A program made the translations under genes and the position numbers. A stretch of 32,000 nucleotides of DNA, taken from contig JALHOH010000002.1 in assembly GCA_022843095.1 (NCBI GenBank), positions 180,001 through 212,000 on the forward strand, given 5' to 3'. The stretch comes from Candidatus Saccharimonadota bacterium. Its GTDB lineage: Bacteria; Patescibacteriota; Patescibacteriia; 2-12-FULL-60-25. Under the pieces are notes generated by a model. The model was not told the origin of the DNA, did no database searches, and was given only the letters and a program-made list of their open reading frames with translations. Of this stretch, positions 5,927 through 32,000 are shown piece after piece. How positions within the stretch are numbered: position 1 is the stretch's first letter; every line of letters starts with the position of its first letter.

Positions 5927-7165
5927 ATGAACCCTCGCCTTAAGCAGGCGCTGCTCGTGGTTGGCTTTCTTGCGATCGTCGCAGGCCTTGCATTCGCCTT
6001 GTATTACGTTTTTTTCCGCGAAGAACCGTCCCAAATTCTTCCTGAACCGACCCCGATCCCCGGCGCACCGCTTCCCTCAGCGGGCACTGGCCGTCCCACG
6101 ACGACTGTTTCCGTGCCTGGCGCACTTCCATCTGCCCCAACGCCGGCCGCTCCTCCATCTCCTCTCGCGTTCCCCTCTCCTGAAGCGGCAGAAGCGCCTC
6201 GGACCACCGTTCTCAACGAAAACGTGTCACAGGCGATATCGCTTTCACAGTCCGGCGGCGTACGTTTGTACGACAGTTTTTCCGGACGGTTTTTCCGCAT
6301 CACGGATGAAGGGCAGCGCATTCCCCTGGGCACGCAAACCTTCTTTAACGTCGCGGATGTCGCGTGGGCCAATAGTTCCGATAAGGCCGTGTTGACCTAT
6401 CCCGACGGATTCAAAACGCTCTACGATTTCACCACCGGACAACAGGTGACGCTTCCCAAACACTGGGAATCCTTTCAATTTTCTCCGCAGGACGACAAGA
6501 TCATCGCGAAAAGCATGGGAAACAACGAGGATAACCGGTTTCTTGTGATCGCGAACCCGGACGGAACCAACGCCGAAGCGGTGGAAGCGCTGGGAACCAA
6601 TGCCGATCGCGTTCAAGTAAGCTGGTCTCCCAACAACCAAGTTGTCGCCTTTGCGCAGACCGCCGAAGGGATCGGGTTTGATCGTCAACAAATCCTACTG
6701 GTCGGCAAAAACCGGGAAAACTTTAAAGCGTTGGTTGTGGAAGGACGTGGATTTTTGCCCAGCTGGTCGCCCTCTGGAGAAAACGTGCTCTACAGCGTGT
6801 ACGACGGATCCAGCGGATTCCGCCCATCCCTTTGGATCAGCGGCGCATCTGGCGATAACGTGAATGCAAACCGACGCAACATCCAACTGCAAACGTGGGC
6901 GGATAAATGTACCTGGAAAGACGAACAGACCGTATTCTGTGCCGTCCCAACCCAACTTCCGGAAGGCGCAGGCCTTCAGCGCTCTGTCGCAGATGGCATT
7001 CCTGATCAGATCTATCGCGTCGATCTTGCGACCGGACAAACGGTGAATCTTGGCCAGCCGGACGGAAATCCAACGATCAATCGCCTGCTCATTGCACCGG
7101 ACGGTCGCGCCGTTTACTACAACGACCGCATCACGGGTCGCCTTGTGCGCTATGCTCTCCCCTGA
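5927..7165 (+). CDS. Membrane-anchored TolB-like (PD40/WD40-like) beta-propeller protein
   Basis: 412 aa. An N-terminal TM helix (LLVVGFLAIVAGLAFALYYVFF) is followed by a Pro-rich linker and then repeated propeller-type motifs: LVIANPDGTN, SWSPNNQVVAF, PSWSPSGENVLYS and LLIAPDGRAVYY. Confidence 0.8.
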   Translation: MNPRLKQALLVVGFLAIVAGLAFALYYVFFREEPSQILPEPTPIPGAPLPSAGTGRPTTTVSVPGALPSAPTPAAPPSPLAFPSPEAAEAPRTTVLNENVSQAISLSQSGGVRLYDSFSGRFFRITDEGQRIPLGTQTFFNVADVAWANSSDKAVLTYPDGFKTLYDFTTGQQVTLPKHWESFQFSPQDDKIIAKSMGNNEDNRFLVIANPDGTNAEAVEALGTNADRVQVSWSPNNQVVAFAQTAEGIGFDRQQILLVGKNRENFKALVVEGRGFLPSWSPSGENVLYSVYDGSSGFRPSLWISGASGDNVNANRRNIQLQTWADKCTWKDEQTVFCAVPTQLPEGAGLQRSVADGIPDQIYRVDLATGQTVNLGQPDGNPTINRLLIAPDGRAVYYNDRITGRLVRYALP

Positions 7166-7838
7166 TCGTCCACGCGAACATCACGTCCTCCTTTTTAGCG
7201 TCTTGGGGCTCATGCTTCTTGTGCTTGGCGTGCTTGGATGGAACCTGTTTCATCAATCAAGTACGCGTTTCCGCATTGGGAATGCCCCTCCGTCACTCCA
7301 AGAGGATGCGCAGACAAAAAAACCAACGCTTCCTCCTGAATCTCCAAAAGCGCCCGTACGGGGGCCCGAAGACCCGCGGTATCCAACCGTGACCCTGTTC
7401 GCGGATTACACCTGTCTCTATTGCCGTGGCGTCGCGATGGAATTAGAACGCGTGGCCGCCGGTGGGATTGCATTTCGCTATGTGTGGCGTGATCTTCCGC
7501 ACACCGAAGAGCGGCCGGACGGCATTATTGCGAGTGCCGCTGCACGGTGCGCGCAAGATCAGGGAAAGTTCTGGCAACTCCACCCATTGCTACTGACAGC
7601 CAAGTCCTTTGACCTCAAATCCCTGCAAAGTCTGGCCACGCAAGCCGGTCTGGATCTGCCACGCTTCAACGCCTGCATGGACTCGGGAGAGATGGTTCCT
7701 TCCATCCAGCAAGAAGCGGAAGTCGCTCGACAATCCAACATCACGGGGACGCCAACGCTGTTTATCGGATCAACGGTGATTGAGGGATACGTCACCGCCG
7801 AAGAACTTCGTGGCCTTATTCAACGCTCGACTCGCTGA
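7152..7838 (+). CDS. DsbA-family thiol:disulfide oxidoreductase, membrane-anchored
   Basis: I take the start as the ATG at 7152 (MLSPDRPREHHVLLFSVLGLMLLVLGVLGW is a TM anchor) rather than the ORF-track start at 7050, which lies deep inside the upstream gene. The CXXC active site is YTCLYCRG. The cis-Pro loop GTPTLFIG is typical of DsbA/thioredoxin-fold proteins. Confidence 0.8.
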   Translation: MLSPDRPREHHVLLFSVLGLMLLVLGVLGWNLFHQSSTRFRIGNAPPSLQEDAQTKKPTLPPESPKAPVRGPEDPRYPTVTLFADYTCLYCRGVAMELERVAAGGIAFRYVWRDLPHTEERPDGIIASAAARCAQDQGKFWQLHPLLLTAKSFDLKSLQSLATQAGLDLPRFNACMDSGEMVPSIQQEAEVARQSNITGTPTLFIGSTVIEGYVTAEELRGLIQRSTR

Positions 7839-7839
7839 C

Positions 7840-10389
7840 ATGTTTGCTCGACGCCTGTGTTCCGTCGTACTGGTGACGGGAGGACTCCTCGCGCCGTATT
7901 TTGGAATCGCTGCCACCAACCGCGAGGTGATTTGCGATGTCGCCCGAACGTGCGCTCGGAGCGGTCCTGGCTGCGCTCCTGGTTCCACCTGCAACACAAG
8001 TCAGGGTGTCGTAGAAGAATGTCGCATCACTGTCGCCGAACAGGGTCGGTGTGTTACCGATCAAGAACAACGGGACATGGTGGCAGATGCGCAGTATTTT
8101 ACCCGCGAACGTGTCGTACCTGGACGCGTGGAACGAACCATTTGTTGTCGCTGCCGTCGCGCCGGGTCTGGTGATAAATGCGTGACCTTCACGAACGTTT
8201 CGGATTGCGGGATGAACACCATTGATCGGCATCCCTCGATGATCAGTTTGCAATCGCAAGGGGCGAATGCGCCGGTCACTTGTGATGAAGAAAAAATCCC
8301 CGATTCCCAATGCCTTACGGTTGCAAACGGCGGATCCTGCCAAAACACCCCGACGGATGCCGTCACCGCATTCACCACCCAAGCCAGCACACCATCGCTC
8401 ACGGATCAGGTCAGCGATACTCTGACCCAAGCCGTACGCCCGTCCATTACCCCGAATCTCTCCGTCCCGATTCCCGGCCTCACATTCTCAAGCGCAGAGA
8501 AGGCCGGCGGAACGGTGCGCGTCAGCTTCCTTGGGCAATATATCGCCGCGGTCTATCGCTATGCCGTGTCCATCGTGGTGGTTGTCGCAACGATCATGGT
8601 GGTATATGGCGGCTTCTTATATCTCATTAGCCCCATTGCCGGAGATGCCTCCCGAGGAATGGAGATCATCAAAGACGCGCTCATGGGGACGGTCGTTTTG
8701 CTTGCCGCGTACCTGATTTTACAAACCATCAATCCACGGCTAACAGACTTGGAGTCCCTCAATTTGAATTACATCGCACGTACCGAATACGGCGAAGGTG
8801 AGGGGCAAAACGAAGCGGTCCGCGATATTTCTAGCGGCGCGTGTGCCGAGCTCCCACGTCTCGCCAGCATCCGCTCTGATCAAATGATCGCCGTCCCCCG
8901 CTATTATCAATTCGCATCTCCCTGGGGGGGCCAAGCATTTGGACGGAACCTGATCGGGCAATCGGAGCTCCCCGCCTGCACGTCCGCATCCACCCAAAGC
9001 CAGAATTGTACCGGGACCTTCGGCCAAGGGGCATGTGGGGTCACGTCGCTCGCCTCTGTGCTTGCGTATTACAACGTCCAAGGGGCAAACGGCCGAATTA
9101 CACCGCTAGATACCGGAGCGTATGCCGTACGGAATGGCTTTCGTCCACACAATGCGGGTACGACGCCTGGCGCGTTTTGTTCGGATGCGTTTCGACGGGA
9201 ATATCCTGGCTTTGAATGTGAGTCGCTGGGGAGCAACGTGACGCGCGCCATTCAAGCCTTGCGAAACCACCAACCCGTGATTTTTCATTGCGCACGATGC
9301 GCCGTCACGCTGAAAAACGGCCAACCGGGATTTGGCAGTCGTGGAAGCGGACACTACATGGTGCTGACGGGTGTGTCGGATGATGGGCAAACCTTTGCCA
9401 TTCATGACGTCGGCCATGCGGATGGAACGGCAGCCGCCGCCATCTCCGCCGCAGTTCTGCGTACGCAATCGATGTGGCTCATCTATCCACGCGGATCCGC
9501 GCCGGGGACCTCCACAACCGGAACACGTCCTGCAACCCCTGGAACGGGAACGGTAGCCGCGGCGGGAGCCTGCGCGCCGACGGGTGGCCAGAGTGCCATT
9601 ACCGCGACCTCCGGCGATCTGACCATCGCAAAATTCGCCTATCGGCCAAACGGAAACACGGGGTGGCAGCATGAGGGCTCCCCGCTTGTCTTCCCGACCC
9701 GTCTCGCGAACCAAACGGCGGATGTCCAATTGTTCATCTATTTGCATGGGCTGAATACGCATGCAAATACGTTTGAAACATCCGGCTACTGGCGAGAAAT
9801 CCGCCCCGAACTCCAACGCGTCGCCGGGAGTCATAACGTCGTGTTCGTCGCGCCACATTTCCAAGCGGGCTCAAACTATTATTCTGGATTCACCTTTTCC
9901 TCGTTTTATAGCGCGGTGACCGCTGCACTGGCCGCGAATCCTGCCACACGACAACTTCGCGTCGATCGCATTGTGATTGGAGGTCACAGCGCCGCCACCT
10001 GCCAAGGAAGCCCCGTCCCACTCCGTGATGCCATGCGGAATAAACCCGCAAACACGCGAGGCGTTGTGGCGTTTGATGGATGCCTTGGAACCGAACTGAA
10101 GCAGAATAATTTTTCCGATCCTGGAGGATTCGTCTTCTTTAACCCAGACCTTTCGGGAATGGGGATTGATCGAGATACCACTCCGCCAACCAATCGCTAT
10201 CTTCTGACGCGCGAAAGTTATGGACTCGTCTCACACGCCTGCCCACCGTACGTCGGTCGCGGAGTCGCCTGTTTCAAGCATCCGACAGAACAATGGTGGT
10301 CGTTTGAAACACGACTTGGACACGCCGAAAGTGTGCAAGAAATGACCAAATACCTCATCCAAGGATTCTTCCCACCGGTTTCTCCGTAA
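7840..10389 (+). CDS. Secreted Cys-rich protein with a pilin-like two-helix hairpin, a C39-like cysteine peptidase domain and an alpha/beta-hydrolase domain
   Basis: I take the start as the ATG at 7840, 1 nt after the DsbA stop, which gives the signal peptide MFARRLCSVVLVTGGLLAPYFGIAA. The N-terminal module is Cys-rich and contains an ICCRC motif. The TM hairpin is YAVSIVVVVATIMVVYGGFLYLISP...ALMGTVVLLAAYLILQTINPRL. The C39-like motifs are VPRYYQFASPW, GACGVTSLASVLAYYN (Cys codon at 9034-9036) and GHYMVLTG (His codon at 9352-9354). The hydrolase motifs are LFIYLHG and IVIGGHSAA (Ser codon at 9988-9990). Confidence 0.8.
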   Translation: MFARRLCSVVLVTGGLLAPYFGIAATNREVICDVARTCARSGPGCAPGSTCNTSQGVVEECRITVAEQGRCVTDQEQRDMVADAQYFTRERVVPGRVERTICCRCRRAGSGDKCVTFTNVSDCGMNTIDRHPSMISLQSQGANAPVTCDEEKIPDSQCLTVANGGSCQNTPTDAVTAFTTQASTPSLTDQVSDTLTQAVRPSITPNLSVPIPGLTFSSAEKAGGTVRVSFLGQYIAAVYRYAVSIVVVVATIMVVYGGFLYLISPIAGDASRGMEIIKDALMGTVVLLAAYLILQTINPRLTDLESLNLNYIARTEYGEGEGQNEAVRDISSGACAELPRLASIRSDQMIAVPRYYQFASPWGGQAFGRNLIGQSELPACTSASTQSQNCTGTFGQGACGVTSLASVLAYYNVQGANGRITPLDTGAYAVRNGFRPHNAGTTPGAFCSDAFRREYPGFECESLGSNVTRAIQALRNHQPVIFHCARCAVTLKNGQPGFGSRGSGHYMVLTGVSDDGQTFAIHDVGHADGTAAAAISAAVLRTQSMWLIYPRGSAPGTSTTGTRPATPGTGTVAAAGACAPTGGQSAITATSGDLTIAKFAYRPNGNTGWQHEGSPLVFPTRLANQTADVQLFIYLHGLNTHANTFETSGYWREIRPELQRVAGSHNVVFVAPHFQAGSNYYSGFTFSSFYSAVTAALAANPATRQLRVDRIVIGGHSAATCQGSPVPLRDAMRNKPANTRGVVAFDGCLGTELKQNNFSDPGGFVFFNPDLSGMGIDRDTTPPTNRYLLTRESYGLVSHACPPYVGRGVACFKHPTEQWWSFETRLGHAESVQEMTKYLIQGFFPPVSP
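8431..8752 (+). repeat. Copy 1 of the highly conserved nucleotide block (pilin-like hairpin region) shared by the two tandem paralogs
   Basis: Long identical runs are visible between the copies. For example, ctatcgctatgccgtgtccatcgtggtggttgtcgcaacgatcatggtggtatatggcggcttctt here matches ctatcgctacgccgtgtccattgtcgtcgttgttgcgaccatcatggtggtatatggtggcttctt at 11000-11320. Confidence 0.8.
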
Positions 10390-10390
10390 T

Positions 10391-12457
10391 ATGCGACGCG
10401 TCCTGCTTGCACTCAGTCTCATCTCTTCCGTCCTGCTTTCCGCAGGAGATGCGTGGGCACGCACCAACCGTGAAGCATTCTGCGATCCGGCGCGTCGCTG
10501 TTTTGCGAGTGAAGCCTCCACCTGCGGATCAGGTCGCACCTGCGCCATCAACACGGTCGTAGACACCGTGTGCGGGTTGACCACCGTCGGCCAAGGACGC
10601 TGTCTTGCGGCAGAAGATTTGACCTGCATGAACACGGAGTCCTGTCTTTCACGGGAAGCCGTGGAGCCCGTCCGTGTTGAGCAATCCATCTGCTGCCGAT
10701 GTGGTTTGAGTACCGCACGCGATCGATGCGTCTCTTTTACAAACGTCACCACCTGCGCCGCGGACATGATCGATCGACATCCCTCGATGATCGCGTACCA
10801 CAACCGATCTGGCGCAACCGCGGATAGCCCCCAGGTCCAATGCGATCCGGTACAACTCTCTGAACAGGAGTGCTTGCCCGTGGCGCAAAATGGCACCTGC
10901 CAAAATCGTGCCGCCGATGTGGTCACCGTATTCACCGCACAAGCTGACCCAAGCGCTGGCCCTGGCCTCATCGAGCGAGCAAGCGATGCGCTGACCGGTG
11001 CCGTCCGACCTCCGATCACTCCCAACCTGTCCGTTCCCATTCCCGGCCTCACCTTTGCAACACCGGAAGCCGCTGGTGGCACCGTTCGCGTGAATTTCCT
11101 GGGACAGTATATCGCCGCTGTCTATCGCTACGCCGTGTCCATTGTCGTCGTTGTTGCGACCATCATGGTGGTATATGGTGGCTTCTTGTATCTGGTAAGC
11201 CCCATCGCCGGGAAAGCCACGAAAGGAAAGGAAATCATCAAAGACGCGCTCATGGGAACGGTGGTATTACTTTCCGCATACTTGATTTTAAACACCGTGA
11301 ATCCGCAGCTCACCAATTTGCGATCTCTGTCATTAGAAGAGATTCTTCCCGTCACTGACGCGATTCACGACTCCTCGGCTCGAGATGAAGAAAACAACAC
11401 GGGTCCAAATGGAACCGCCCAATCAGTCCCGGCAAATACTTCCGAACTCTGCACGACCGCTCCAGCACGCGACGCCTCCCCGGCGATTCGAAGACCGTTT
11501 GCACAAGCCGCTGCCACCTGTACGGACTACCCGCCAACGACCATCCCCACGCAAATTACGGCAAGTTATTGCAGCAATTTAAACGCGACGGTCAGCGATG
11601 GAAGCATTCGAAAGCGCATGCGCGCAAAGGTCACCCTCGTCCCTCAGCTCACCGGCTCCGCCCGAGATCACCTGGCGTGGTGCGCGAATTGCGCCGATCA
11701 TTTTTCTTGCAGCGCCCCGGAACGCACGGATGAACAATGCGTTCGACTTGCTGGAAGAAATGGAGAAGGGGTGCCATGCGCAGGAGGATTTGGCCTATTC
11801 TTGAGAGGCATGACGGCGAATTGTCACGGAAAACGCTTTGATCGAATGGATGGGTTGGATGGATTAACGTTTGGGATTCAAGACACAAACGCCTGGGATC
11901 TCCCAGGAATGCTCCGCGACTTTGAACAGACGGACCGAGATGCCTTCTTGCGCGTATTTGCGAACGCCGATCTCGCGGCGTGGTATCAAAATGGCTCGAT
12001 TCGTGCCGATTGGTTTTGTGAACAGCAAGTGCGTCAAAATGGGCTTGCTTGTAACGCCAACTTTCGACGTGGATTGGAAGCTGCTATGCGCGAACGTGGG
12101 ATGATCATTGCGCAACTTCGACGTGCGTATGCAGACTACACCCGATTTACGCGTATCGCTTCTGCGCATTTTCGAAGCGTCAAAGGACAGGCGATGTTTG
12201 CAGCGTGGTTAAATAACCCCGGACGATGCGGTGGCAGTCTCGCCCCCCTTGTACAGGCCTGCGGGAGACTTCCTGAGGAGGAAAAGTATGAATGTTTCCT
12301 GCGTGAAGCGGTGAACGTGCCTTGCCGCAATAATGCCACGGGAGCTGCAAGTCGCGCGCAATCCATTCGCACCGCATTGGCCAATATCCCCTTTTCCGTA
12401 ACTGCAGGCGAAATTGAACCGCTCGACGCGCTGATCAACCGCTGCCTCCCCCGATAA
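10391..12457 (+). CDS. Paralog of the previous gene: same signal peptide, Cys-rich module and pilin-like hairpin, but an unrelated Cys-rich C-terminal domain of unknown function
   Basis: 688 aa. The signal peptide is MRRVLLALSLISSVLLSAGDAWA. The segment VRPPITPNLSVPIPGLTF...FLGQYIAAVYRYAVSIVVVVATIMVVYGGFLYLVSP...LILNTVNPQL is nearly identical to the upstream gene. After about aa 320 the two sequences diverge completely. Confidence 0.8.
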   Translation: MRRVLLALSLISSVLLSAGDAWARTNREAFCDPARRCFASEASTCGSGRTCAINTVVDTVCGLTTVGQGRCLAAEDLTCMNTESCLSREAVEPVRVEQSICCRCGLSTARDRCVSFTNVTTCAADMIDRHPSMIAYHNRSGATADSPQVQCDPVQLSEQECLPVAQNGTCQNRAADVVTVFTAQADPSAGPGLIERASDALTGAVRPPITPNLSVPIPGLTFATPEAAGGTVRVNFLGQYIAAVYRYAVSIVVVVATIMVVYGGFLYLVSPIAGKATKGKEIIKDALMGTVVLLSAYLILNTVNPQLTNLRSLSLEEILPVTDAIHDSSARDEENNTGPNGTAQSVPANTSELCTTAPARDASPAIRRPFAQAAATCTDYPPTTIPTQITASYCSNLNATVSDGSIRKRMRAKVTLVPQLTGSARDHLAWCANCADHFSCSAPERTDEQCVRLAGRNGEGVPCAGGFGLFLRGMTANCHGKRFDRMDGLDGLTFGIQDTNAWDLPGMLRDFEQTDRDAFLRVFANADLAAWYQNGSIRADWFCEQQVRQNGLACNANFRRGLEAAMRERGMIIAQLRRAYADYTRFTRIASAHFRSVKGQAMFAAWLNNPGRCGGSLAPLVQACGRLPEEEKYECFLREAVNVPCRNNATGAASRAQSIRTALANIPFSVTAGEIEPLDALINRCLPR
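11000..11320 (+). repeat. Copy 2 of the conserved block shared by the tandem paralogs
   Basis: See copy 1. Weaker protein-level similarity extends over the whole N-terminal ~300 aa (7840-8752 against 10391-11320). Confidence 0.8.
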
Positions 12458-18616: not shown

Positions 18617-18625
18617 ATGCGTCCT

Positions 18626-19135
18626 TTATATCCTCAACAGCCGCGCAAATATATCAGAGACATGCTCCCCCTGCAAGTCCAGGTTTTCCGGGAGATATTG
18701 GCGTAGATGTGTACGAATCGCGACTGGATCCTCGTCCTCTAATGGAATCCGCAACCGCGGCCGAACCGTGCTTCCGTGCTCTACATACAACACCTTGGAA
18801 TACGGCGGCTGATACACAATGGCAAACTCGCGTAATTCCTGGAAGGGATAAAAGACGCCGCCCACCACGATCCCCTGATCCCCGATCTGCACCAGGTGCA
18901 ACGTGGGTTGCTGGATCCCGGCCAAGATCAACAACACCGCAGAAAGCAAGATAAAAAACGCAAACAAAAAGTTTGAGGTGTACACCGCGTATGCCACCAA
19001 AAAGACGGCGACGAGCACCATCACCACATACCATCGTGAACTACGCTGGTACTTTGGAAACGAGGCGATCTCCCACGCAAACGCGTCCTGTGCCACCACG
19101 ATGGCCTCCAAGACTTCGGGAGGATACGAAATCAT
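18626..19135 (-). CDS. Hypothetical protein with two TM helices and a C-terminal soluble domain
   Basis: 169 aa. The TM hairpin is WYVVMVLVAVFLVAYAVY and FLFAFFILLSAVLLILAGI, followed by a ~90-aa domain that looks beta-rich. The stop lies 9 nt upstream of the tRNA-Arg 5' end. Confidence 0.7.
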   Translation of the reverse strand: MISYPPEVLEAIVVAQDAFAWEIASFPKYQRSSRWYVVMVLVAVFLVAYAVYTSNFLFAFFILLSAVLLILAGIQQPTLHLVQIGDQGIVVGGVFYPFQELREFAIVYQPPYSKVLYVEHGSTVRPRLRIPLEDEDPVAIRTHLRQYLPENLDLQGEHVSDIFARLLRI

Positions 19136-20081: not shown

Positions 20082-20173
20082 TGGCGGAGAGGGAGGGATT
20101 CGAACCCTCGCGGGACTCATCATCCCCTAAGAGTTTAGCAAACTCTCCCCTTCAGCCTCTTGGGTACCTCTCC
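20082..20173 (-). tRNA. tRNA-Ser, anticodon GCT (type II, long variable arm), with encoded CCA
   Basis: The reverse complement is GGAGAGG TA CCC AAGAGGCTGAA GGG G AGAGT TTGCTAA ACTCT (long variable arm) GAGGG TTCGAAT CCCTC CCTCTCC G CCA. Confidence 0.9.
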
Positions 20174-20276: not shown

Positions 20277-20366
20277 GGAGAGGTGGCTGAGTGGTCTAAA
20301 GCAACGGACTTGAAATCCGTCGTACGGGAAACCGTACCGTGAGTTCGAATCTCACCCTCTCCGCCA
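20277..20366 (+). tRNA. tRNA-Ser, anticodon TGA (type II), with encoded CCA
   Basis: The sequence is GGAGAGG TG GCTGAGTGGTCTAAAGC A ACGGA CTTGAAA TCCGT (variable arm CGTACGGGAAACCGTACC) GTGAG TTCGAAT CTCAC CCTCTCC G CCA. Confidence 0.9.
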
Positions 20367-23133: not shown

Positions 23134-23814
23134 TTACACGGTTCTGCCTGAGGCGATCACAAACCCATACACAGGCCGCGCGCCACTTGCACGCATAATC
23201 CGCGCCGCCTCTTGCAGGGTTGATCCTGTCGTCATGACGTCATCCACCAAAACGACCGGTCCATCCAAGGGACGCACAAGTCCAAACACCCCGTCGACGT
23301 TGGCATGGCGCAGCACATCAGACCCAAGGCGTGCTTGCGGAGGGACCTCTCGAACTCGTTCAAGCGCCGGCACAATAGGCGCCCAAGGCAACAATGTTCG
23401 CTGCACCCATTCCGCGATCCACATCGTATGATCTAACCCGCGCGCCTGTTTACGCGTTGCGTCCGATGGCAGCGGTACGATGGTAAGCGAGGACGCCCCC
23501 GCCCATGGCCAAGGCTCTGTGCGATGATCGCGCGTGATGCGCATCCATTCGGCAAGGGTGGGTCCAAGACAGGTCGCGCGATCGTATTTTATCGCTTTTA
23601 TGACGCGTTGTACCAATGGATGACCGTACGGAACACACGCCGCCACGCGATCTATTCCCGGGACAGGTGGAACGTCCTGTTGCAACGAAAAGACACTACC
23701 ATGGCAAGAAGGGCAGACCCATGCTCCCGACGCGTCGCACCCAACGCAAAACGGCGGGAAAAGGATATCCGCGATCCCCGTCCCGACGGCCTGCATCACA
23801 CGCGTGACCTGCAT
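23134..23814 (-). CDS. comF: ComF-family protein (ComFC-like phosphoribosyltransferase-fold competence protein)
   Basis: 226 aa. The N-terminal zinc ribbon is FCVGCDASGAWVCPSCHG. The C-terminal PRTase motif is VVLVDDVMTTGSTLQEA. Confidence 0.85.
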   Translation of the reverse strand: MQVTRVMQAVGTGIADILFPPFCVGCDASGAWVCPSCHGSVFSLQQDVPPVPGIDRVAACVPYGHPLVQRVIKAIKYDRATCLGPTLAEWMRITRDHRTEPWPWAGASSLTIVPLPSDATRKQARGLDHTMWIAEWVQRTLLPWAPIVPALERVREVPPQARLGSDVLRHANVDGVFGLVRPLDGPVVLVDDVMTTGSTLQEAARIMRASGARPVYGFVIASGRTV

Positions 23815-23823: not shown

Positions 23824-24426
23824 TTACTCCATGCGTTCCAAGCGTGTCACTTGCCACCCCGCACCCACCGGCGCGAGCGTCACTTCATACCGCGCAATAT
23901 CCACGGGCGTGGCCAAGTTGTTTTCTTCGGTTGTGACGTGCGCCTCCACCGTCAGCAACACCTGCGCATTCCCCTTCACCGGCGCATTCGTAATGCGAGC
24001 GGCCAGGCCACGGACCGTACGAGCCCATGTTCCCGCTGTACGCGGATGAGCTTGCTGCAACGCAGTGCGCTCTGTCTCAAGAAAGGCCCGTACCGCCGTG
24101 GACGCATCCGCACTCCCCTGACGCATCGCTTCAAAATTATCGTAGTTACTGCCCGTTTGTGCCCGGGTCACAAAATCCAACGCAAACCGCTTCGCCGATT
24201 CGGCAAGCGCAAGCTCGCCCTGATCCACGGGAGCAGGTGGCGCAACCTTTGCAATCGCGGGAGCCGGCGTTTCGGGCACCTCCGGCTGAAGGGCCTGCGA
24301 GTTGATCGGCGGTGGCTGCGCGGGCGGATTCGCCGTGCGCCATAACGGTAACAGCACGAACACAATCGCAAAGATCACGGCACCGATCGCAAGCAAGATC
24401 AAAAAGATGGCAAGATAGCGTTTCAT
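23824..24426 (-). CDS. Bitopic membrane protein with a Pro-rich linker and a ~120-aa external domain (VirB8-like candidate)
   Basis: 200 aa. The N-terminal TM helix is YLAIFLILLAIGAVIFAIVFVLL, followed by the PPAQPPPINSQALQPEVPETPAP linker. The C-terminal alpha+beta domain ends YEVTLAPVGAGWQVTRLE. It lies 9 nt downstream of VirB4. Confidence 0.7.
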   Translation of the reverse strand: MKRYLAIFLILLAIGAVIFAIVFVLLPLWRTANPPAQPPPINSQALQPEVPETPAPAIAKVAPPAPVDQGELALAESAKRFALDFVTRAQTGSNYDNFEAMRQGSADASTAVRAFLETERTALQQAHPRTAGTWARTVRGLAARITNAPVKGNAQVLLTVEAHVTTEENNLATPVDIARYEVTLAPVGAGWQVTRLERME

Positions 24427-24435
24427 ACTGGAAGA

Positions 24436-26331
24436 TTACCCGGACTGCTGAGCTTGTTGAAATTTCTTGCGCTCTTCTTCGAGTTTCAGCAACTGTTGCG
24501 GGTTGGTCGTGACGATCTGATCCTCGGTGTAAGACGCAACGACCTGAATAGCCGCATGTTTTGCACCGGCAAAAAAGATCCCTTCACCCACCCCGGATTC
24601 CAGCAGCAAATATTTCTCCGATTGCGTCAGCAAAAACGTCCGCGCCACCAAATCAATCGCCGCCGGAGACTGCTTGAGCAACATCTGCATCGAGCTGTTC
24701 GTCACGATGGCCTGGCCATACGGCGAGGTCAAAAAGTCGTTCACGTCTTGAGTGATCGTCGTCACACCCAAGAAATACTTACGGCATCGCTTGACCAAGG
24801 CGAAGATAAACTTAGCAGAATCCTCGGATTGCATGAGCCACCACGCTTCGTCGATCACGAGAATGCGCTTTTTTCGTTCGCTGCGTACCACGTTCCAAAT
24901 GTAGTTGACGATGGTATAGATCGCCATTGGACGCAATTCGTCTTCCAAATCACGAACCGAGAAAATAACCAGTTGGTTGGTCATCTGCACCGTTGTCGGT
25001 GAATTGAGCAACCCCGAAAACGTCCCTTCCGTGTACTTTTTCAATTTCACGATCAGTTCAGCCGTCCCCTCCATCCCCTCCAAGATATCCTGAAAATCTT
25101 GCAAAATCGGCGGCTCCACGCGAGTTAAATCCGAACCGGGGACGATATCCTTCTTTGCGTACGTTTCAAGCAACGCACGATCCAAAATGGAATCCTCCGT
25201 CGTCGTGATTTTTCCCAGCATGAGACGCAACAATCCCTTAATCGTGATGACGGCGCTTCGAATGATGTCTTCGACGGCATACGCCTCACCTGTCGGACGC
25301 GGCAAGTCAAACGGGTTGATCTTGGATTTCGACGACAATGAGATATTAATATACGTCCCCCCAACCGCATCGGAAAGGTGCTTATACTCCATTTCCGGAT
25401 CGATAACGATCACATCCACGCCGACCATCATGGAACGAATGATCTCCAATTTCACGGTGTAGGACTTCCCTGCACCGGACGTGGCAAAAATCACCGCATT
25501 CGCATTTTGCAACGAAAACCGATCAAACAAGATGAGCGAGTTGTTGTGACGATTCACGCCGTACAAGATGCCGTTGTCGCTGGTCAGATCGGCGCTCGTG
25601 AACGGGAACGACGACGCAATCGGCGACGTGCTCATGTTAAAGGTGATCTGCAGTTCATCATTGCATACTGGCAAACACGAACTAAACCCCTGTTCCGCCT
25701 GAAAATAGGCACGGCGGGTGTAGATCAACATGGATCCGAACGTCCCTTCGACATTCGAGGAAAGCCGTTCAAGCTCTTCTTTATCCTTCGAATAAAACGT
25801 GCAATAAAAGGCGAATTGAAAAAAGTGTTCGATTCCTTGGGTCAGGTCATCTCGCAGCTGTTCGACGTCGCGAAGCGCCGTTTCCGTGATCGGATCGCGC
25901 GGCTTCCCGGATTCCGCATCCGTCGCAATCTGTGCTTCCAACACCCCCACTTTTTTCTTGAGCTGCTGCAAAATCACGTCCGCTTTGATGGGATAAAAGA
26001 ACATCGCAATATCCAGCTGCGCCGAAAGGTTGATAATCGGAGACGCCCATCCGACGGTGACATAGCGCGGATACGTAATGACAAACAGCGTTCGGCAAAA
26101 CACATCTCCAAGCCGCACATACGATGGCTCGATCTTCATCGACGCCGGCGCAATCAAATCCTTGATGCTTGCGACGCCGCGACGATAAATACGCTCTTCT
26201 TCAAGGGCGGTGCGCTCTTCTGCCTGCTTCTGTTTTTGCTGCAGCTTGGACGGACCACGCTGGAGCTTGACGCCGTCTTCCAAAATCTCGGAAACGCCGA
26301 CAGTTTTTTGGGGCTGTGTTTCAAAGGCCAT
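24436..26331 (-). CDS. virB4: VirB4/TraC-type type IV secretion ATPase, ATPase portion
   Basis: 631 aa. Walker A is FATSGAGKSYTVK. Walker B is RILVIDEAWWLM. The downstream LGVTTITQDVNDF motif is typical of VirB4/TrbE ATPases. Confidence 0.9.
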   Translation of the reverse strand: MAFETQPQKTVGVSEILEDGVKLQRGPSKLQQKQKQAEERTALEEERIYRRGVASIKDLIAPASMKIEPSYVRLGDVFCRTLFVITYPRYVTVGWASPIINLSAQLDIAMFFYPIKADVILQQLKKKVGVLEAQIATDAESGKPRDPITETALRDVEQLRDDLTQGIEHFFQFAFYCTFYSKDKEELERLSSNVEGTFGSMLIYTRRAYFQAEQGFSSCLPVCNDELQITFNMSTSPIASSFPFTSADLTSDNGILYGVNRHNNSLILFDRFSLQNANAVIFATSGAGKSYTVKLEIIRSMMVGVDVIVIDPEMEYKHLSDAVGGTYINISLSSKSKINPFDLPRPTGEAYAVEDIIRSAVITIKGLLRLMLGKITTTEDSILDRALLETYAKKDIVPGSDLTRVEPPILQDFQDILEGMEGTAELIVKLKKYTEGTFSGLLNSPTTVQMTNQLVIFSVRDLEDELRPMAIYTIVNYIWNVVRSERKKRILVIDEAWWLMQSEDSAKFIFALVKRCRKYFLGVTTITQDVNDFLTSPYGQAIVTNSSMQMLLKQSPAAIDLVARTFLLTQSEKYLLLESGVGEGIFFAGAKHAAIQVVASYTEDQIVTTNPQQLLKLEEERKKFQQAQQSG

Positions 26332-26343
26332 ACGTCTTCGAGA

Positions 26344-27045
26344 TTATTCTTCAAGTTGAAGTTGATTCGCATCGACCAGCCGCTGCGTATCGTACAGTTC
26401 CGGATTGTACACCGTGTAAAACAGTTCAATTAACGACTGCGTATCCAATTGAACCGCAGAAAGCGACATGCTGGAGAGCCCTTGCTGGATTTGACTCACG
26501 CGCAACCCAAGATCGAACTTCTCTTTCTTGAACCGTTCTTCTGAGACGCGAATGGCCCCGCCCGGGGTCAAAATTTCGCTCATTCGTTGAAAGAACCCTT
26601 TGCGTTCAGAGGTCGCCGGATTCAGGGGAACGACCACGAAAAACCGCTTCTGCATGATATCGCCCAGCTGCACCAGCTGTTTGATGAACGCGATGTAATC
26701 CTTGATCTGACGCTTCAACAGTTCATTTTGCGTTTCTTGATCGTGCGTCCGAACCTGCTGAAGATAGTTATCGATATTCATCTTCCGCGATTGGATGACG
26801 ATTTGAATAGGAAAATCGATCCCATTCAAAAACTGCATGTACGCTTGCACGATCGCATTTTGTTCATCGATGGATTTCAAAGAAAAGTTGATCGATGACA
26901 CCAGAAGGACGGCGCGAAGCGTTCCGTCCTTCATGATCACCGTGTCCTCTTTGATTTCCGCGATATCTAAATAGCGTTGGGTCGGTACCCCAGGCTTTGG
27001 TCCGGCGAGCTTCGCGCTTTGCATAGAATCACTCTTCTTCGGCAT
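26344..27045 (-). CDS. VirB4 N-terminal domain encoded as a separate ORF, in the same frame as the ATPase ORF and separated from it by one TAA
   Basis: 233 aa. LDIAEIKEDTVIMKDGTLRAVLLVSSINFSLKSIDEQNAIVQAYMQFLNGIDFPIQIVIQSRK resembles the N-terminal CagE/TrbE/VirB-type domain of VirB4 proteins. The coordinates 27045 and 26331 are congruent modulo 3. Confidence 0.75.
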   Translation of the reverse strand: MPKKSDSMQSAKLAGPKPGVPTQRYLDIAEIKEDTVIMKDGTLRAVLLVSSINFSLKSIDEQNAIVQAYMQFLNGIDFPIQIVIQSRKMNIDNYLQQVRTHDQETQNELLKRQIKDYIAFIKQLVQLGDIMQKRFFVVVPLNPATSERKGFFQRMSEILTPGGAIRVSEERFKKEKFDLGLRVSQIQQGLSSMSLSAVQLDTQSLIELFYTVYNPELYDTQRLVDANQLQLEE

Positions 27046-27463
27046 TATACACCCCTCCCGTATTTACCGTGAGCGCCAGGTCACGTAGGCGTGTGGATGA
27101 GGGGGCAATTTTCGCCGGTGGAGGTGGCGGCGGTACTTCAGCGGCACGTTGCGCCAATGCTTTTAACTCATAATCATTCAACCGCTTGTCCCAGACGCGC
27201 AACATCGGTCGGCTATATGTTTGCAAAAAATTCACGAAGAACAGATGGAATGGCTGACCGTTGATTTTGAGAAATGCGAACACCGCTGCAATCCCGACCG
27301 TCGGAAGCGCCGTCAAAATAAACGGCGCCAGGGTAAAAATGCTGTATTCGATGAACACGATGAAGGTCGCCGCAATGCAGATCAAAAACTGGCGCACGGT
27401 GATGGGCCCCAAAATCTTGTCTTCGCTGTCAATAAATTGCGGAACGATAAACTTTTCTGGCAT
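27029..27463 (-). CDS. PrgI-family (VirB3-like) small membrane protein
   Basis: 144 aa. The N-terminal signature is VPQFIDSEDKILGPITVRQFL, followed by two TM helices (ICIAATFIVFIEYSIF and FILTALPTVGIAAVFAFL). It overlaps the next gene by 17 nt. Confidence 0.75.
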   Translation of the reverse strand: MPEKFIVPQFIDSEDKILGPITVRQFLICIAATFIVFIEYSIFTLAPFILTALPTVGIAAVFAFLKINGQPFHLFFVNFLQTYSRPMLRVWDKRLNDYELKALAQRAAEVPPPPPPAKIAPSSTRLRDLALTVNTGGVYNAEEE

Positions 27464-27466
27464 AGG

Positions 27467-29038
27467 CTAGAGCTGGATACGGCTATTCAACTGAATCATC
27501 GCATTCACCTCTTCTGGCGATAAAGTCGCCGGATTACTCGCATGACGCTCTTCTACGAGTTGCGCAACGGGTTTGCCTGCTCCAAAGCTTTCAGCGACAA
27601 GACGCAGATATTCGGCTTGCATTGGGGAATTTCTCCAGGCCTGAATCCCCTCCGTCCATCGATCGAACGATTCTGATTCTAACGTCTTCAATTTTTGCCA
27701 AATGCGCTCTGCGGCATCGGCTGGGTTTTTGGCGAGCCGACGGAATTCAGCCACCGAGATTCCCGCCAATTCATCGGTGAGTCCCATTAACCGTTGAGGT
27801 GCTCGGACTGCATCCATCGCAAGCGATGACGTAGGCGCAGCTCCTGGGGTCGCGCCCTTTTGCATCCCCTGCTTCATGGCGGCAAAAATTGCCGCCGCCT
27901 GCGCTTCTGCAGATTGCGTCCCTTTCACCTTTTCCTGATACCACTTGGCATGCTCTTCACTGTCCCGCTTTCGACGATCTTCAATGATCTGTTTTTGCTG
28001 CTCGGTCACGGATTGAATGCGCTGCGTCTCTTCCGCAGTAATAAAATGCCGGTGCTCTTCGTAGGCCTTTTCTATCACATTCACGATCGTCTCCGCCTGT
28101 GCCTCGTCCAGTCCAAGACCACCCACCTTCACCTCGCGGGTTAGCATCTGCCGCACCTGAGAAGCATTACGCACATCGCGCAGCCGCGTACTTACCAACG
28201 TCTCCAAACGGCGTTGCAAAAACGGATCTGTCAGGGTTGAGGCAAGCGCTGTCATCGTTGCGTCAATCGCGGATTGCAGCGTTGCAAGTCCATGTTTTGG
28301 ACCGGTCGGACGCAACACCTCTTCCTCTGATGCATTTGCCGAAACAGATTCCATGGCCGCCTCGGCCTGCGCACGCACCTGGTCTTGGTAGGTTGCATAC
28401 CACTGGGCGTATTCTTGCTCGGAAAGCACGCGCACAGTTTGCAGCAATTGCTGCATGGCCCGCAAAAACGCCTCGGCCTGGTCTTGCGATAACCCAATCC
28501 CGCCATCTGATTGCCCCTTCACCAACACCTCACGAAATTGCTGCTCTGTGCGAATCCCTTTCACAAAAGACAAAAATCCGTCCCGCAAGCGCTGCGCGAT
28601 CACATCCGAAAGCAAACCGATCTTCGCCTGCCCCGCAATACGACGGATCGCTGCGCCATACGACAGAGGACGCAATGAAACGCGCGGGACGGTCGCGTAT
28701 TCTGCTGCCGAAACTCCCAGCTGCTGCAGACGCGCTTCCACATCCCAAAGGACTGCATCGGCAAGCGGCAAAATCAACCCCATCAACACCTTTTTTTCGA
28801 CATCTTTTGGGGAACGATCTCCTGCCACGGTCGCAAACCGCGCAGAGGCATCCTCCGGAGAAATATGCGCAAACAACACCTCCCACACCACATCCATCAC
28901 ACGATCCCACGCATCATGTTCGTAACCCAATGATTCCTGTACGACGCGCTCGCGTTCCGCCGTTGCCGGGTCAAGCAAATACGCCTGCACCGCCTCCGGT
29001 GCCTGCTCAAATGCTCGAACCCATGCATCGCGCGTCAT
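27467..29038 (-). CDS. Hypothetical 523-aa helical protein with an internal repeat (secretion-operon component of unknown function)
   Basis: No TM helix or signal peptide is visible. A GGAG motif lies about 11 nt upstream of the ATG. There are two copies of a ~40-aa motif ending GG[IL]GL[SD]xxQAE. Confidence 0.75.
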   Translation of the reverse strand: MTRDAWVRAFEQAPEAVQAYLLDPATAERERVVQESLGYEHDAWDRVMDVVWEVLFAHISPEDASARFATVAGDRSPKDVEKKVLMGLILPLADAVLWDVEARLQQLGVSAAEYATVPRVSLRPLSYGAAIRRIAGQAKIGLLSDVIAQRLRDGFLSFVKGIRTEQQFREVLVKGQSDGGIGLSQDQAEAFLRAMQQLLQTVRVLSEQEYAQWYATYQDQVRAQAEAAMESVSANASEEEVLRPTGPKHGLATLQSAIDATMTALASTLTDPFLQRRLETLVSTRLRDVRNASQVRQMLTREVKVGGLGLDEAQAETIVNVIEKAYEEHRHFITAEETQRIQSVTEQQKQIIEDRRKRDSEEHAKWYQEKVKGTQSAEAQAAAIFAAMKQGMQKGATPGAAPTSSLAMDAVRAPQRLMGLTDELAGISVAEFRRLAKNPADAAERIWQKLKTLESESFDRWTEGIQAWRNSPMQAEYLRLVAESFGAGKPVAQLVEERHASNPATLSPEEVNAMIQLNSRIQL

Positions 29039-29041
29039 ATG

Positions 29042-29746
29042 CTATTTTTCTCCGGCTCCCGTCGCCAACATTTTTAAAGCCGCAGGGATCCCTTTCCCAT
29101 CACGAATGGATTTCAGAAACGCCAGCACATCCACTTCAAACGGAGATCGATCATCTTCAACTGTTTTCAGAATTCCTTTTTCCAGCAGCTTCGCCTGCTT
29201 CACCGCTTCCGGCAAAAGCATGGTTTTTTGCGAATCCGTCAACAATCGTTCATGTTCATCGGCCTTCAATTGAAGTTGGATCAATTCAATCAAATGCGAT
29301 GTATGCAACACGGAAATCAATTCCGCACGATCCGTTGAAGAAAGACTTCCAAGTTGCCGAACGATCCGTTCAATAATGAGGAGATGCTCTTTAAACACTT
29401 CGCTCTTTTCGGAAGGATGTGGCCGCTCTGCGATCAGTAACGCATCCGTTAACGCTTCACGAAAAATACTTCCAAGCGCATCCGTGAACTCAATCTGCTG
29501 CACAGGATCAGGAAACAAAGATACAAGCTCATCCAATGATTTAACGAACAAAAGATTCCGCAGTGCCGGTTTGATTTGATCGTGTTTTCCATCCACCGTC
29601 AGCCCCTCACGCAACGACTTTTCCCAACCAAGAGGAGCGCTCCCCAGTGAACGCTCACCCGTCCGCAAGTCGCGCACTTCTCGTATCCCCGCTGCGTTTG
29701 GTTCTCCGAGCACCCCTTTTGATTTAAAGATACCCATAAAATGCAT
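29042..29746 (-). CDS. Hypothetical 234-aa soluble protein (secretion-operon component of unknown function)
   Basis: Its start shares one base with the upstream stop (TAATG). No TM helix is visible and I recognise no motif. Confidence 0.7.
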   Translation of the reverse strand: MHFMGIFKSKGVLGEPNAAGIREVRDLRTGERSLGSAPLGWEKSLREGLTVDGKHDQIKPALRNLLFVKSLDELVSLFPDPVQQIEFTDALGSIFREALTDALLIAERPHPSEKSEVFKEHLLIIERIVRQLGSLSSTDRAELISVLHTSHLIELIQLQLKADEHERLLTDSQKTMLLPEAVKQAKLLEKGILKTVEDDRSPFEVDVLAFLKSIRDGKGIPAALKMLATGAGEK

Positions 29747-32000
29747 TACACGTTTTTGAGTTCACCGGTCTCCTTAAGTTGCTGAACACGCGCCTTCACC
29801 TGCGCCTGGAGTTTGGAATCTAAACTGGACAACGATTGTTCAAATGCCCCTGTATCCAATTCATTTACCCCCAACCGCGTGGTGATATGCGGCTCAATGA
29901 AGTAGTCGAGAACCACGGTCTGCTTCAGCGCTTCTGGGTCAAGCTTTGCCTGCGCAGCTACATCTTTCTTGATTTCACTCATCACGCGTCCGAACTCCGC
30001 GTCTGGCGCAAGATGAGGCTTCACCTTCATCGTCATTTCTACTTCTTTCACCTTTCCAGCATTTCCTTCCGTCTTCGCCTCATCGTAGGAAGCGGCGAGG
30101 TTCTTCTTCTGATCCTCAATCATGACACCCGTCTGCGCGACAGACTTTCGTGACGCATTCTCTTTTTCAACAGAACGAGATTCTGCATCTGCCACATTCT
30201 TCATCGTCACAGAAACGTCCGCTTGAGCCCTCTCGGGTGAACCCGCGTTCTTCCCCAAAGCCGCCTTAAACGCCACCTTATATTCCCGATCTGCGTTCGC
30301 ATACAACGCCTTGGCATCGTCTTGCGTGATCTGGCCCGACTTCACACGAGAATCAATGTCTTTCTTTGCCTGCTCGTAGGTCGCCTTTGCGGCTTCCGCT
30401 GTTTTCGCGCCACTACCAGCCTTGTTTGCAACCGGATTATTTGACACCTCTTGCACACTACCCGGTGCTGCTGGGGCAAGAGAGGCTTCCACCTGTTTGC
30501 GAATATCTGCCGCATTTGTGACAGCCGCCGCTTTCGTCGCCTCTCGTTCCTTGGAGGCACCATCTAACTTCTGCAACCGCTCCACTTCCAGCTGCTTTTT
30601 CTCTGATTCAAGCGCGGTACCCGCTACCTTCCCATCATATTCCTTATTGATCGCGCGGACGTCCTGGGCATACTTCGCATCCGCCTGCTCTTCCACGTAT
30701 TTGCGATCAGCGCGGTTCTGCGTCATCGCCCCGACCTTCTCTGCGGCATATGCACCCGGCTTCTTGGCAATTTCCAACGCCTTCGCACCAACCGCCTGCT
30801 TCGTTTCTGTCCATTTCGCCTCCTCTTCCGCCATTCGCTGCTTAAAATCAATCCCCTTTTCTTTTAGCATTGCATCAATCTTTTCCTTTGCACGTAATTC
30901 TTCAGGCTTATCACCCAATGATTTGCGATAACGGTACAAGGCCTCCGGATCATTCTTTAATCCGCGAGCATTTGCCAAATAATCCTTGGTGCGATCTGCG
31001 ATGCGCGCCTGTTCCGCCCCCGCCATCTTCGCAAGCGTGCCGCCGGCGATGGAACGGACACCCGGCACAGCAAGCCCCGCCTTCCCAACCGCCGCTGTCG
31101 CCTTGGTTGTCAACCCGTACCGCTGATTCACCAAACCGGCGCCACGCTGGACGCCACGTCCTGCCAAAGCCGCTGCGCCAAGAGCAACGCCACCCGCAAC
31201 CGCACCTACCTGCAACCCACGCTTTGGAAGGCTCTGCAACAACCCATTCACACGGTCAAAACCCGGCAACGCCCCCGCCGTCTTGCCGGCCGCCTGAAGC
31301 CCCATCCACATCATCGCGATCGAGACGATAAACGTGGTGATCGTATCCACATTGCCAAGCTGAGAGGCAAACGCATCAAATCCTGAGGTAGAAGGGCTGG
31401 TCATGAGACCCGTCGCTTCTCCCAATCGACCACCGTTTGCCGCAGATGCACGCTGAATCGTGGCGAGCGTAATATACAAGAAGAATGCCATCACCGGACC
31501 GCTTACCAAATACCCGCTATAGTTTCGCCAAAAATCGCTCGTAAACGCACTGACCGCATCCTGCAACTTCCCAGGAAGTGCGGTTGCAAAAAAAGCGACT
31601 GGAGAAAAAATCATGAGCATCCACAACCCCAAAATGCGCACAAGCACAAATGCGATCATGGCGAGCACCGTCATGATCATGATCCCAATACACACGATCG
31701 CCAGCAAAATCGTAATGAAAAGTTTCATTTGATCCACACTCGCCTGCGCTGCCGCTTCTGACCCCGGTCGAAACTGCATGGCACCGTTTAATCCGAACCC
31801 ATTCACGAAGTTTCCCGCCGCCGCATCCTTGAATGCGTTCACAAAGGTGAGCATCACCACCTGCGAAAAATCGATGCCTAACGCCAAAATAGTACGACTG
31901 AAGTTAATAAGAACCGCCATGAGCAATAGTTTTGGCAGGACGCGGGTGTAATGGAACTCGTCACGATACCCAATGATGGTGGCAAATGCCGAAACAAGCA
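29746..32000 (-). CDS. TrbL/VirB6-like polytopic membrane protein with a long K/A/E-rich C-terminal tail (5' end lies outside the window)
   Basis: The frame stays open to the window edge; no stop occurs upstream of the ORF-track TTG start at 31926. At least 5 hydrophobic helices are present, for example LFITILLAIVCIGIMIMTVLAMIAFVLV, LWMLMIFSPVAFFATAL, GPVMAFFLYITLATI and ITTFIVSIAMMWMGL. A low-complexity tail of about 425 aa follows. Confidence 0.75.
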   Translation of the reverse strand, partial: LVSAFATIIGYRDEFHYTRVLPKLLLMAVLINFSRTILALGIDFSQVVMLTFVNAFKDAAAGNFVNGFGLNGAMQFRPGSEAAAQASVDQMKLFITILLAIVCIGIMIMTVLAMIAFVLVRILGLWMLMIFSPVAFFATALPGKLQDAVSAFTSDFWRNYSGYLVSGPVMAFFLYITLATIQRASAANGGRLGEATGLMTSPSTSGFDAFASQLGNVDTITTFIVSIAMMWMGLQAAGKTAGALPGFDRVNGLLQSLPKRGLQVGAVAGGVALGAAALAGRGVQRGAGLVNQRYGLTTKATAAVGKAGLAVPGVRSIAGGTLAKMAGAEQARIADRTKDYLANARGLKNDPEALYRYRKSLGDKPEELRAKEKIDAMLKEKGIDFKQRMAEEEAKWTETKQAVGAKALEIAKKPGAYAAEKVGAMTQNRADRKYVEEQADAKYAQDVRAINKEYDGKVAGTALESEKKQLEVERLQKLDGASKEREATKAAAVTNAADIRKQVEASLAPAAPGSVQEVSNNPVANKAGSGAKTAEAAKATYEQAKKDIDSRVKSGQITQDDAKALYANADREYKVAFKAALGKNAGSPERAQADVSVTMKNVADAESRSVEKENASRKSVAQTGVMIEDQKKNLAASYDEAKTEGNAGKVKEVEMTMKVKPHLAPDAEFGRVMSEIKKDVAAQAKLDPEALKQTVVLDYFIEPHITTRLGVNELDTGAFEQSLSSLDSKLQAQVKARVQQLKETGELKNV

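Follow-up and report, generated by a model that had tools for sequence, protein, structure and literature searches.

Genes of the operon

The window analysed here, a stretch of 32,000 nucleotides (nt) comprising positions 180,001 to 212,000 of contig JALHOH010000002.1, ends in a row of closely packed minus-strand genes with components of a type IV secretion system (T4SS). An earlier note, made from the letters of the sequence, had described this row as seven consecutive open reading frames (ORFs) with junctions ranging from a 17-nt overlap to a 12-nt gap, and both extremes were confirmed from the ORF coordinates. From the VirB6-like to the VirB8-like end, the junctions are a 1-nt overlap, a 3-nt gap, a 3-nt gap, a 17-nt overlap, a 12-nt gap and a 9-nt gap. 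All seven ORFs are present, intact and tightly coupled, but the row is longer than described: its first ORF is cut by the end of the window, and at the other end the packed co-directional run continues with ComF, the gene of which lies 9 nt downstream of the VirB8-like gene, then with a cardiolipin synthase and then with a DedA/VTT protein. There is no marked compositional break at the locus. The genes of the row, with lengths of the products in amino acids (aa), are the following:

29746..32000, minus strand: VirB6-like polytopic membrane protein, extended; frame open to the window end (listed ORF 29746-31926+)
29042..29746, minus strand: 234-aa soluble protein, narrow-lineage accessory gene without a family match
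27467..29038, minus strand: 523-aa cytoplasmic all-alpha protein, a conserved family in related loci
27029..27463, minus strand: PrgI-family VirB3-like protein, 144 aa, two transmembrane helices (Pfam PF12666)
26344..27045, minus strand: TrsD-like protein, 233 aa, detached N-terminal VirB4-like module (NCBIfam models)
24436..26331, minus strand: VirB4 ATPase, 631 aa, MPF_FATA / CD1110 type (NF045971)
23824..24426, minus strand: VirB8-like bitopic membrane protein, 200 aa (predicted fold)
23134..23814, minus strand: ComF (ComFC-type) competence protein (NCBIfam comF and GntX, E about 1e-15)

VirB4 matched the NCBIfam model NF045971 (VirB4-like conjugal transfer ATPase, CD1110 family) with 348.8 bits (cut-off 325, E=6e-104) over model positions 168-729, and it also matched the Pfam models P-loop_TraG and AAA_10. 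Its Walker motifs, GAGKS (Walker A) at residue 286 and DEAW (Walker B) at residue 494, are intact, and the identification of VirB4 from these two motifs in the earlier note was confirmed by the score of the CD1110-family hidden Markov model (HMM) above its cut-off. In hhalign, residues 56-590 were aligned with residues 224-773 of PrgJ of pCF10 at a probability of 99.7 %. The usual N-terminal ~170-220 residues of VirB4 are missing from the 631-aa protein. The 233-aa ORF located 12 nt upstream of virB4 matched positions 109-233 of the NCBIfam model VirB4_plasma (E=2e-10) and positions 2-119 of the CD1110 VirB4 model, also of NCBIfam, while its match to the NCBIfam TrsD/TraD family (E=2.6e-5) was below the cut-off of that model. 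An orthologue from a related locus (L083) carries a precomputed match to the TraC-like family PF26593; alignment of the TrsD family with the N-termini of PrgJ and TrwK in hhalign gave no signal. Judging from the NCBIfam models, the 233-aa ORF is a TrsD-like protein corresponding to the N-terminal part of VirB4. Because the 631-aa protein covers the VirB4 model from position 168 and the 233-aa ORF covers the N-terminus of the model, VirB4 is split into a TrsD-like protein and a motor, like that of the pGO1 subclass of Gram-positive systems.

The 144-aa protein matched Pfam PF12666 with 35.3 bits (E=1.7e-8), above the gathering score of 27. It contains VPQFIDSEDKILGPITVRQF at residue 7, followed by hydrophobic helices at residues 20-38 and 47-65, and it was aligned with PrgI of pCF10 in hhalign at 34 % probability. 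It had been named a PrgI-family VirB3-like protein from this motif and its two transmembrane helices, and the name can be kept.

The 200-aa protein did not match any model of Pfam or NCBIfam. Its homologues were found using an alignment as the query, whereas a search with the single sequence returned only the protein itself. In the AlphaFold2 (AF2) model, which was built with an alignment of 52 homologues and has a predicted local distance difference test score (pLDDT) of 89.3, an N-terminal membrane helix (residues 2-32) is followed by a proline-rich linker, three helices and four strands, i.e. the protein is predicted to be bitopic with a C-terminal NTF2-like domain. When this model was compared with the PDB in Foldseek, CagV was the best match (E=1.7e-4) and all top matches were VirB8 homologues, the others being R64 TraM, R388 TrwG/VirB8, Brucella VirB8, pCF10 PrgL, pIP501 TraH, TcpC and DotI. 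The template modelling (TM) scores on the target were 0.6-0.73. In hhalign the family profile matched PrgL best of 23 T4SS proteins (62.7 %, E=7.2e-5, 106 columns); in a sequence-profile search of the PDB nothing was significant, PrgL appearing at E=0.3. The protein is confidently predicted to have the VirB8 fold, and the VirB8-like candidate of the earlier note is thus borne out at the level of the fold, by the AF2 model and by the VirB8 homologues on top of the Foldseek list.

The VirB6-like gene is the first of the operon and stands in a row with those of VirB3 and VirB4. No stop codon precedes its listed TTG, and the reading frame is uninterrupted as far as base 32000, so that the end of the window truncates the gene. 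Its orthologues start 108-392 residues (mostly 110-210) before the first residue of the window copy, and those of full length have 833-1547 aa, mostly 950-1100. Within their first ~400 aa the orthologues have 7-9 hydrophobic segments, of which the truncated window copy has 4, and this membrane domain is followed by a hydrophilic tail of ~450-500 aa, rich in A/K/E and with weak TolA-like low-complexity matches. Three of 35 orthologues matched Pfam TrbL: L052 with 25.9 bits, which equals the gathering score (E=9.7e-6), L071 with E=2.2e-4 over model positions 3-203 of 215, and L061 with E=0.0098. In the alignment, the part of these orthologues that matched TrbL corresponds to residues 1 to about 230 of the window copy. 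No signal was obtained when a profile of the membrane domain was aligned with the single sequences of R388 TrwI and pCF10 PrgH in hhalign, and nothing significant when the VirB6-like profile was searched against PDB sequences. Of the polytopic TrbL/VirB6-like protein that had been proposed, the polytopic character stands and the three orthologues reach TrbL, but the window copy itself gives no match to TrbL or VirB6. The designation extended VirB6-like is suggested by transitive homology, architecture and gene position rather than by a direct match.

Between the VirB6-like and the PrgI gene the earlier note had placed two sizeable soluble proteins with no motif that could be assigned, and this description was correct for both. 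For the 523-aa protein there was no family match above threshold in Pfam or NCBIfam and no transmembrane segment was predicted. It has 183 homologues, of which those with a named source are mostly from Uhrbacteria or Patescibacteria, and the family is encoded directly upstream of PrgI in 72 of the 80 related loci described below. The AF2 model (pLDDT 90) is entirely helical, with an 83-residue helix at residues 312-394, and the fold search with this model against PDB and viral structures gave no match; the family profile likewise gave nothing significant against PDB sequences. The protein contains an internal duplication, residues ~142-212 being similar to ~277-339 with a score of 72, compared to 27+-4.8 for shuffled sequences. 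The duplicated helical module is ~60 aa long with the pattern RLRD...GG.GL...QAE, and the C-terminal ~110 residues are the part which is conserved out to Magasanikbacteria-type loci. The interval from the VirB6-like gene to PrgI is variable (5753-8837 in L007, 6336-8615 in L077 and 5287-8681 in L051). Some relatives have two or three ORFs in it, and in L007 the first of these alone matches the 523-aa query, while other relatives have shorter proteins retaining only the C-terminal domain of the family.

The 234-aa protein had no family match in Pfam or NCBIfam and no hydrophobic segment, and a search of 1.84 billion representatives yielded just two true homologues, in L082 and L083. In each case the next gene downstream is one of the 523-aa family; in L083 the homologue also follows a VirB6-like gene, and L082 is too short to show the upstream neighbour. 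The family is absent from the 80 related loci. Given where they are encoded and that they have no export signals, both the 234-aa and the 523-aa protein would be cytoplasmic accessory proteins of the operon.

Relatives, flanks and missing conjugation partners

A total of 556 VirB4 relatives was confirmed, and the loci of the 80 best relatives were used for comparison. Neighbours were screened within +-10 kb of these loci, and the flanks beyond base 32000 were deduced from the relatives. The closest VirB4s are 87 % identical and derive from Candidatus Uhrbacteria and 'Patescibacteria group' metagenome-assembled genomes. Among the 80 best, the top matches with a named source are from Ca. Uhrbacteria, Magasanikbacteria, Falkowbacteria and 'Patescibacteria group', with identities of 70-87 %; the TrsD proteins of the relatives are 48-76 % identical. 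We take Uhrbacteria to belong to the GTDB class ABY1. Bins of the Third Party Annotation (TPA) section titled 'uncultured Gammaproteobacteria bacterium' also have the locus (L003, L005, L008 and many others) and appear to be mislabelled.

The order VirB6-like, 523-aa family, PrgI, TrsD, VirB4, VirB8-like, ComF was found in about 70 related genomes and recurs across Uhr-, Magasanik- and Falkowbacteria. TrsD was present in 78, PrgI in 76, and the 523-aa family and ComF each in 72 of the 80 loci; the VirB6-like gene was found in 52, a count limited by contig ends. Of the 72 loci with ComF, 71 have its start 596-1103 nt past VirB4, a distance that would accommodate a single gene with a product of about 200 aa. 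TrsD and VirB4 are adjacent (median 28 nt), except in five relatives (L012, L013, L015, L017 and L060) where they are separated by 4.9-7.7 kb; the ORFs of this insert had no Pfam match. Upstream of the VirB6-like gene the relatives have a divergent LytR-CpsA-Psr gene and then EngA/Der, and downstream ComF and other housekeeping genes.

Domain scans of the sizeable ORFs of the 32 kb revealed no domain of VirD4, a relaxase, VirB9/10/11, VirB1 or an integrase, in agreement with the earlier note. Homologues of PcfC, TrwB, PcfG, TrwC, the Tn916 integrase, PrgK and VirB11 were likewise found neither in the window nor within +-10 kb of the 80 loci (the R388 reference sequence was NC_028464). The note had taken the missing VirB partners as a sign of a reduced apparatus. 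This interpretation does not hold, as monoderm systems of the MPF_FATA type normally have no VirB7/9/10/11. The related statement that the locus does not match a classical conjugative T4SS is correct in so far as no relaxase, coupling ATPase or integrase is encoded nearby, but the composition is not unprecedented, being that of the published Patescibacteria T4SS.

An ordinary integrative conjugative element, or a remnant of one, with its relaxase, coupling protein and integrase just outside the window, would also explain why VirB4, PrgI and TrsD are homologous to conjugation proteins of Gram-positive bacteria, and the window does end within the first gene of the row. We consider this very improbable. 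The LytR-CpsA-Psr and EngA/Der genes upstream and ComF and housekeeping genes downstream in the relatives are not the flanks of such an element, none of PcfC, TrwB, PcfG, TrwC or the Tn916 integrase was matched in the window or within +-10 kb of the 80 loci, the order is the same across three lineages with VirB4s of 70-87 % identity, and the composition shows no marked break. With PrgI and VirB4 HMMs giving significant matches and housekeeping genes in the flanks of the relatives, the view of the earlier note that this is not an ordinary element of this kind was supported. Even less probable is that an ancient conjugation system is decaying here and no longer functions, as the absence of several canonical partners, and a VirB6-like copy that has diverged beyond the reach of the Pfam model, might suggest. 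Against this explanation, the ORFs are intact and tightly coupled, Walker A and B are intact, VirB4 and TrsD have kept the identities given above, for VirB4 across the whole class, and the homologous system of Saccharibacteria is essential.

Pilin-domain proteins and other genes of the window

The remainder of the window encodes further proteins, some of which recur near the T4SS in relatives:

7050..7838, plus strand: DsbA-like thioredoxin-fold membrane protein (Thioredoxin_4 E=3.5e-18, DSBA E=2e-11)
7780..10389, plus strand: 869-aa paralogue of the following protein, with a Cys-rich domain, a VirB2-like hairpin and a C39-like peptidase domain (Pfam)
10391..12457, plus strand: 688-aa Cys-rich secreted protein with an internal VirB2-like T4SS_pilin hairpin (Pfam PF18895)
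12495-13835, plus strand: RadA (TIGR00416, 409.9 bits, cut-off 403)
13838-15952, minus strand: RecG, convergent with RadA (RecG_wedge and helicase domains)
18540-18616, minus strand: tRNA-Arg(GCG)
20082-20173, minus strand: tRNA-Ser(GCT)
20277-20366, plus strand: tRNA-Ser(TGA)
elsewhere on the plus strand: ClpB/C

The 688-aa protein matched PF18895 with 28 bits (gathering score 26.6); its hairpin consists of residues 251-269 and 282-300, and it has 32 cysteines. In the 869-aa protein the T4SS_pilin match of 23.6 bits was below the gathering score, while Peptidase_C39_2 was matched with E=1.5e-10; here the hairpin consists of residues 265-283 and 296-314, and there are 28 cysteines. The two genes lie about 11-17 kb from the operon, roughly 15-17 genes from virB4. 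In both paralogues the VirB2-like hairpin is located mid-chain, and they are not small pilins. Immediately upstream of the two genes lies that of the DsbA-like protein, which probably oxidises the Cys-rich proteins that they encode. The possibility that small ORFs at 17582-19135 code for pilins was examined and rejected.

The earlier note had counted only three recognisable T4SS hallmarks and called the apparatus minimal. Both statements have to be revised: the 233-aa ORF, to which no role had been given, is TrsD-like by its NCBIfam matches, and the two VirB2-like pilin-domain proteins had been missed, so that a split VirB4 (TrsD and VirB4), VirB3, an extended VirB6-like protein, a VirB8-fold protein and two VirB2-like pilin-domain proteins are present.

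Homologues of the 688-aa protein adjoin RadA in L051, L052 and L072, and RadA/RecG neighbours were also found in L031, L048, L051, L052, L072 and L078. Several relatives carry the pilin-domain genes, RadA and RecG a few kb beyond ComF, on its downstream side. At 2793-7165 on the plus strand, ahead of the genes for the DsbA-like and pilin-domain proteins, are those for a 1027-aa low-complexity protein rich in E/A/T with a C-terminal membrane helix and for a membrane-anchored 412-aa TolB-like beta-propeller protein; in L072 the propeller protein is again encoded beside the pilin-domain genes. The three tRNAs lie between RecG and ComF, in a stretch that also encodes a CHASE histidine kinase, MazG, the cardiolipin synthase and the DedA protein. 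Two of the related loci gave weak histidine-kinase matches; otherwise no protein of this stretch turned up near the T4SS in the loci compared, and because of this the ~7-kb segment looks lineage-specific.

Function and comparison with known systems

In its set of genes and their order the operon corresponds to an inner-membrane translocon of the monoderm type, and its setting is chromosomal and vertically conserved. It is very probable that the locus is a chromosomal and vertically inherited T4SS of the Patescibacteria type from a Candidatus Uhrbacteria genome, derived from the monoderm MPF_FATA conjugation machinery and probably used in contact with a host. Several points weigh against this assignment. 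The placement of VirB4 in the Patescibacteria clade relies on best-match identity rather than on a tree, and the window copy of the VirB6-like protein has no direct match to TrbL in either Pfam (PF04610) or NCBIfam. A canonical VirB2 filament is uncertain, since the hairpins are inside proteins of 688-869 aa and not in small pilins. The analysis covered 32 kb of a contig of 525,788 bp, and a type IV coupling protein (T4CP) or relaxase may be encoded at a distance. The function in host contact in ABY1 is drawn from Saccharibacteria.

In Saccharibacteria, Wang et al. (2023; PMC10633639) described in Southlakia epibionticum an unusual T4SS with predicted pilins and no recognizable coupling or relaxase proteins, and showed it to be essential for the epibiotic growth of this saccharibacterium. 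Because this homologous system is essential for epibiotic growth, the operon studied here is, by analogy, most likely a conduit for host contact. The VirB6-like protein, the VirB3/PrgI anchor, the split VirB4 and the VirB8-fold bitopic protein are the parts of the cytoplasmic-membrane translocon that the operon encodes. In our view PrgI and the VirB8-like and VirB6-like proteins would provide the docking site for VirB4/TrsD, which would drive the assembly of a surface structure and channel. The cell could then contact a host bacterium through this apparatus and move macromolecules by a process other than relaxase-driven conjugation.

A different function, which we regard as possible but rather unlikely, is that the ABY1 T4SS is a DNA-import machine like Helicobacter ComB or the archaeal Ced system, host or environmental DNA being passed to ComFC and processed by RadA and RecG for recombination or nucleotide salvage. 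The position of comF, 9 nt downstream of the VirB8-like gene in the window and held in 71 of 72 loci, is in line with such a function, and so are RadA and RecG, which are present in the window and recur near the locus in relatives. There is no T4CP or relaxase, as in ComB. ComFC is required by H. pylori (PMC9005727), where it acts in the transport of single-stranded DNA in a T4SS-based uptake (PMC9005727, PMC13395361), and a functional coordination has also been proposed by the authors of PMC12102498. However, adjacency within one class may be merely the inherited synteny of compact genomes, and the window lacks genes for ComEC, ComEA and DprA. VirB4 does have a weaker match to CedB (E=1.6e-16), but conjugative models score far better. 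In Saccharibacteria, moreover, type IV pili and ComEC are needed for competence, and the T4SS is still essential when comEC is deleted (PMC12857230). A more specific and still less likely proposal is that the ABY1 operon shares a transcript with comFC and is linked to radA and recG because its machine imports nucleic acid of the host cell, as a monoderm counterpart of ComB or Ced in which the lineage-specific 523-aa and 234-aa families would be new adaptors replacing the coupling protein.

Few machines are known to be indispensable for the epibiotic life of the Patescibacteria, a very large and mostly uncultured group, and their T4SS is among them. The window does not contain a new kind of system; it provides a clean example from class ABY1, with a confidently modelled VirB8-fold component. 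The details that it adds are a 523-aa family for which no structural relative was found in the PDB or among viral structures, a 234-aa family of rare occurrence, the hairpins in large Cys-rich proteins next to a DsbA-like gene, and the tight link between the operon and comFC. These details sharpen the question of DNA or nucleotide acquisition by this machine in the lineage.

This kind of system was already described in 2023-2025, and the window matches the published description of the Patescibacteria T4SS point by point. In a survey of 3,035 Patescibacteria genomes, Quinonero-Coronel et al. (2025; PMC12102498) found a monophyletic VirB4 clade nested in MPF_FATA, TrsD as the commonest partner, PrgI/VirB3 as a common one and PF18895 pilins as widespread. 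VirB6 was detectable in a fraction of the genomes only and VirB8 almost only in class ABY1, relaxases were nearly absent, and the ABY1 loci commonly included comF, recG and radA (PMC12102498). The systems of Patescibacteria are a recognised newcomer to the superfamily (2025 FEMS review, PMC12857230). Like the T4SSs of this clade (Southlakia epibionticum SEML1_0006-0019; PMC12102498), the locus in the window combines an MPF_FATA VirB4, a TrsD-like partner, PrgI/VirB3 and a divergent VirB6-like protein with PF18895 domains, is chromosomal and lacks a relaxase and a nearby T4CP. A VirB8, detectable here by its predicted fold, and the neighbours comF, recG and radA are specifically like those of ABY1, and this three-gene signature fits the class. 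There is no difference of kind between the window and the published systems. The Saccharibacteria differ in having an array of small pilins, whereas the hairpins are here inside the Cys-rich proteins of 688-869 aa.

Compared to the MPF_FATA systems of Gram-positive bacteria, the genes for VirB6, VirB3, (TrsD), VirB4 and VirB8 are collinear with prgH-prgI-prgJ-(prgK)-prgL of pCF10. A separate TrsD-type protein before VirB4 is found as in pGO1/pSK41 (TrsC-TrsD-TrsE), for pGO1 according to PMC12102498, and outer-membrane core components are lacking, as in these Gram-positive plasmid systems. Unlike those systems, the locus has no relaxase, T4CP (PcfC/TraK), PrgK/TrsG-type hydrolase or PrgB-type adhesin near it, it has VirB2-like domains which they lack, and it is chromosomal and not mobile. 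The VirB6-like protein is extended to >900 aa, while PrgH of pCF10 has 266 aa. With ComB of H. pylori and the archaeal Ced system the locus shares derivation from a T4SS and the lack of a relaxase or coupling protein; ComB differs in having VirB7/9/10 for the outer membrane, and Ced in that CedB matches the VirB4 of the window weakly.

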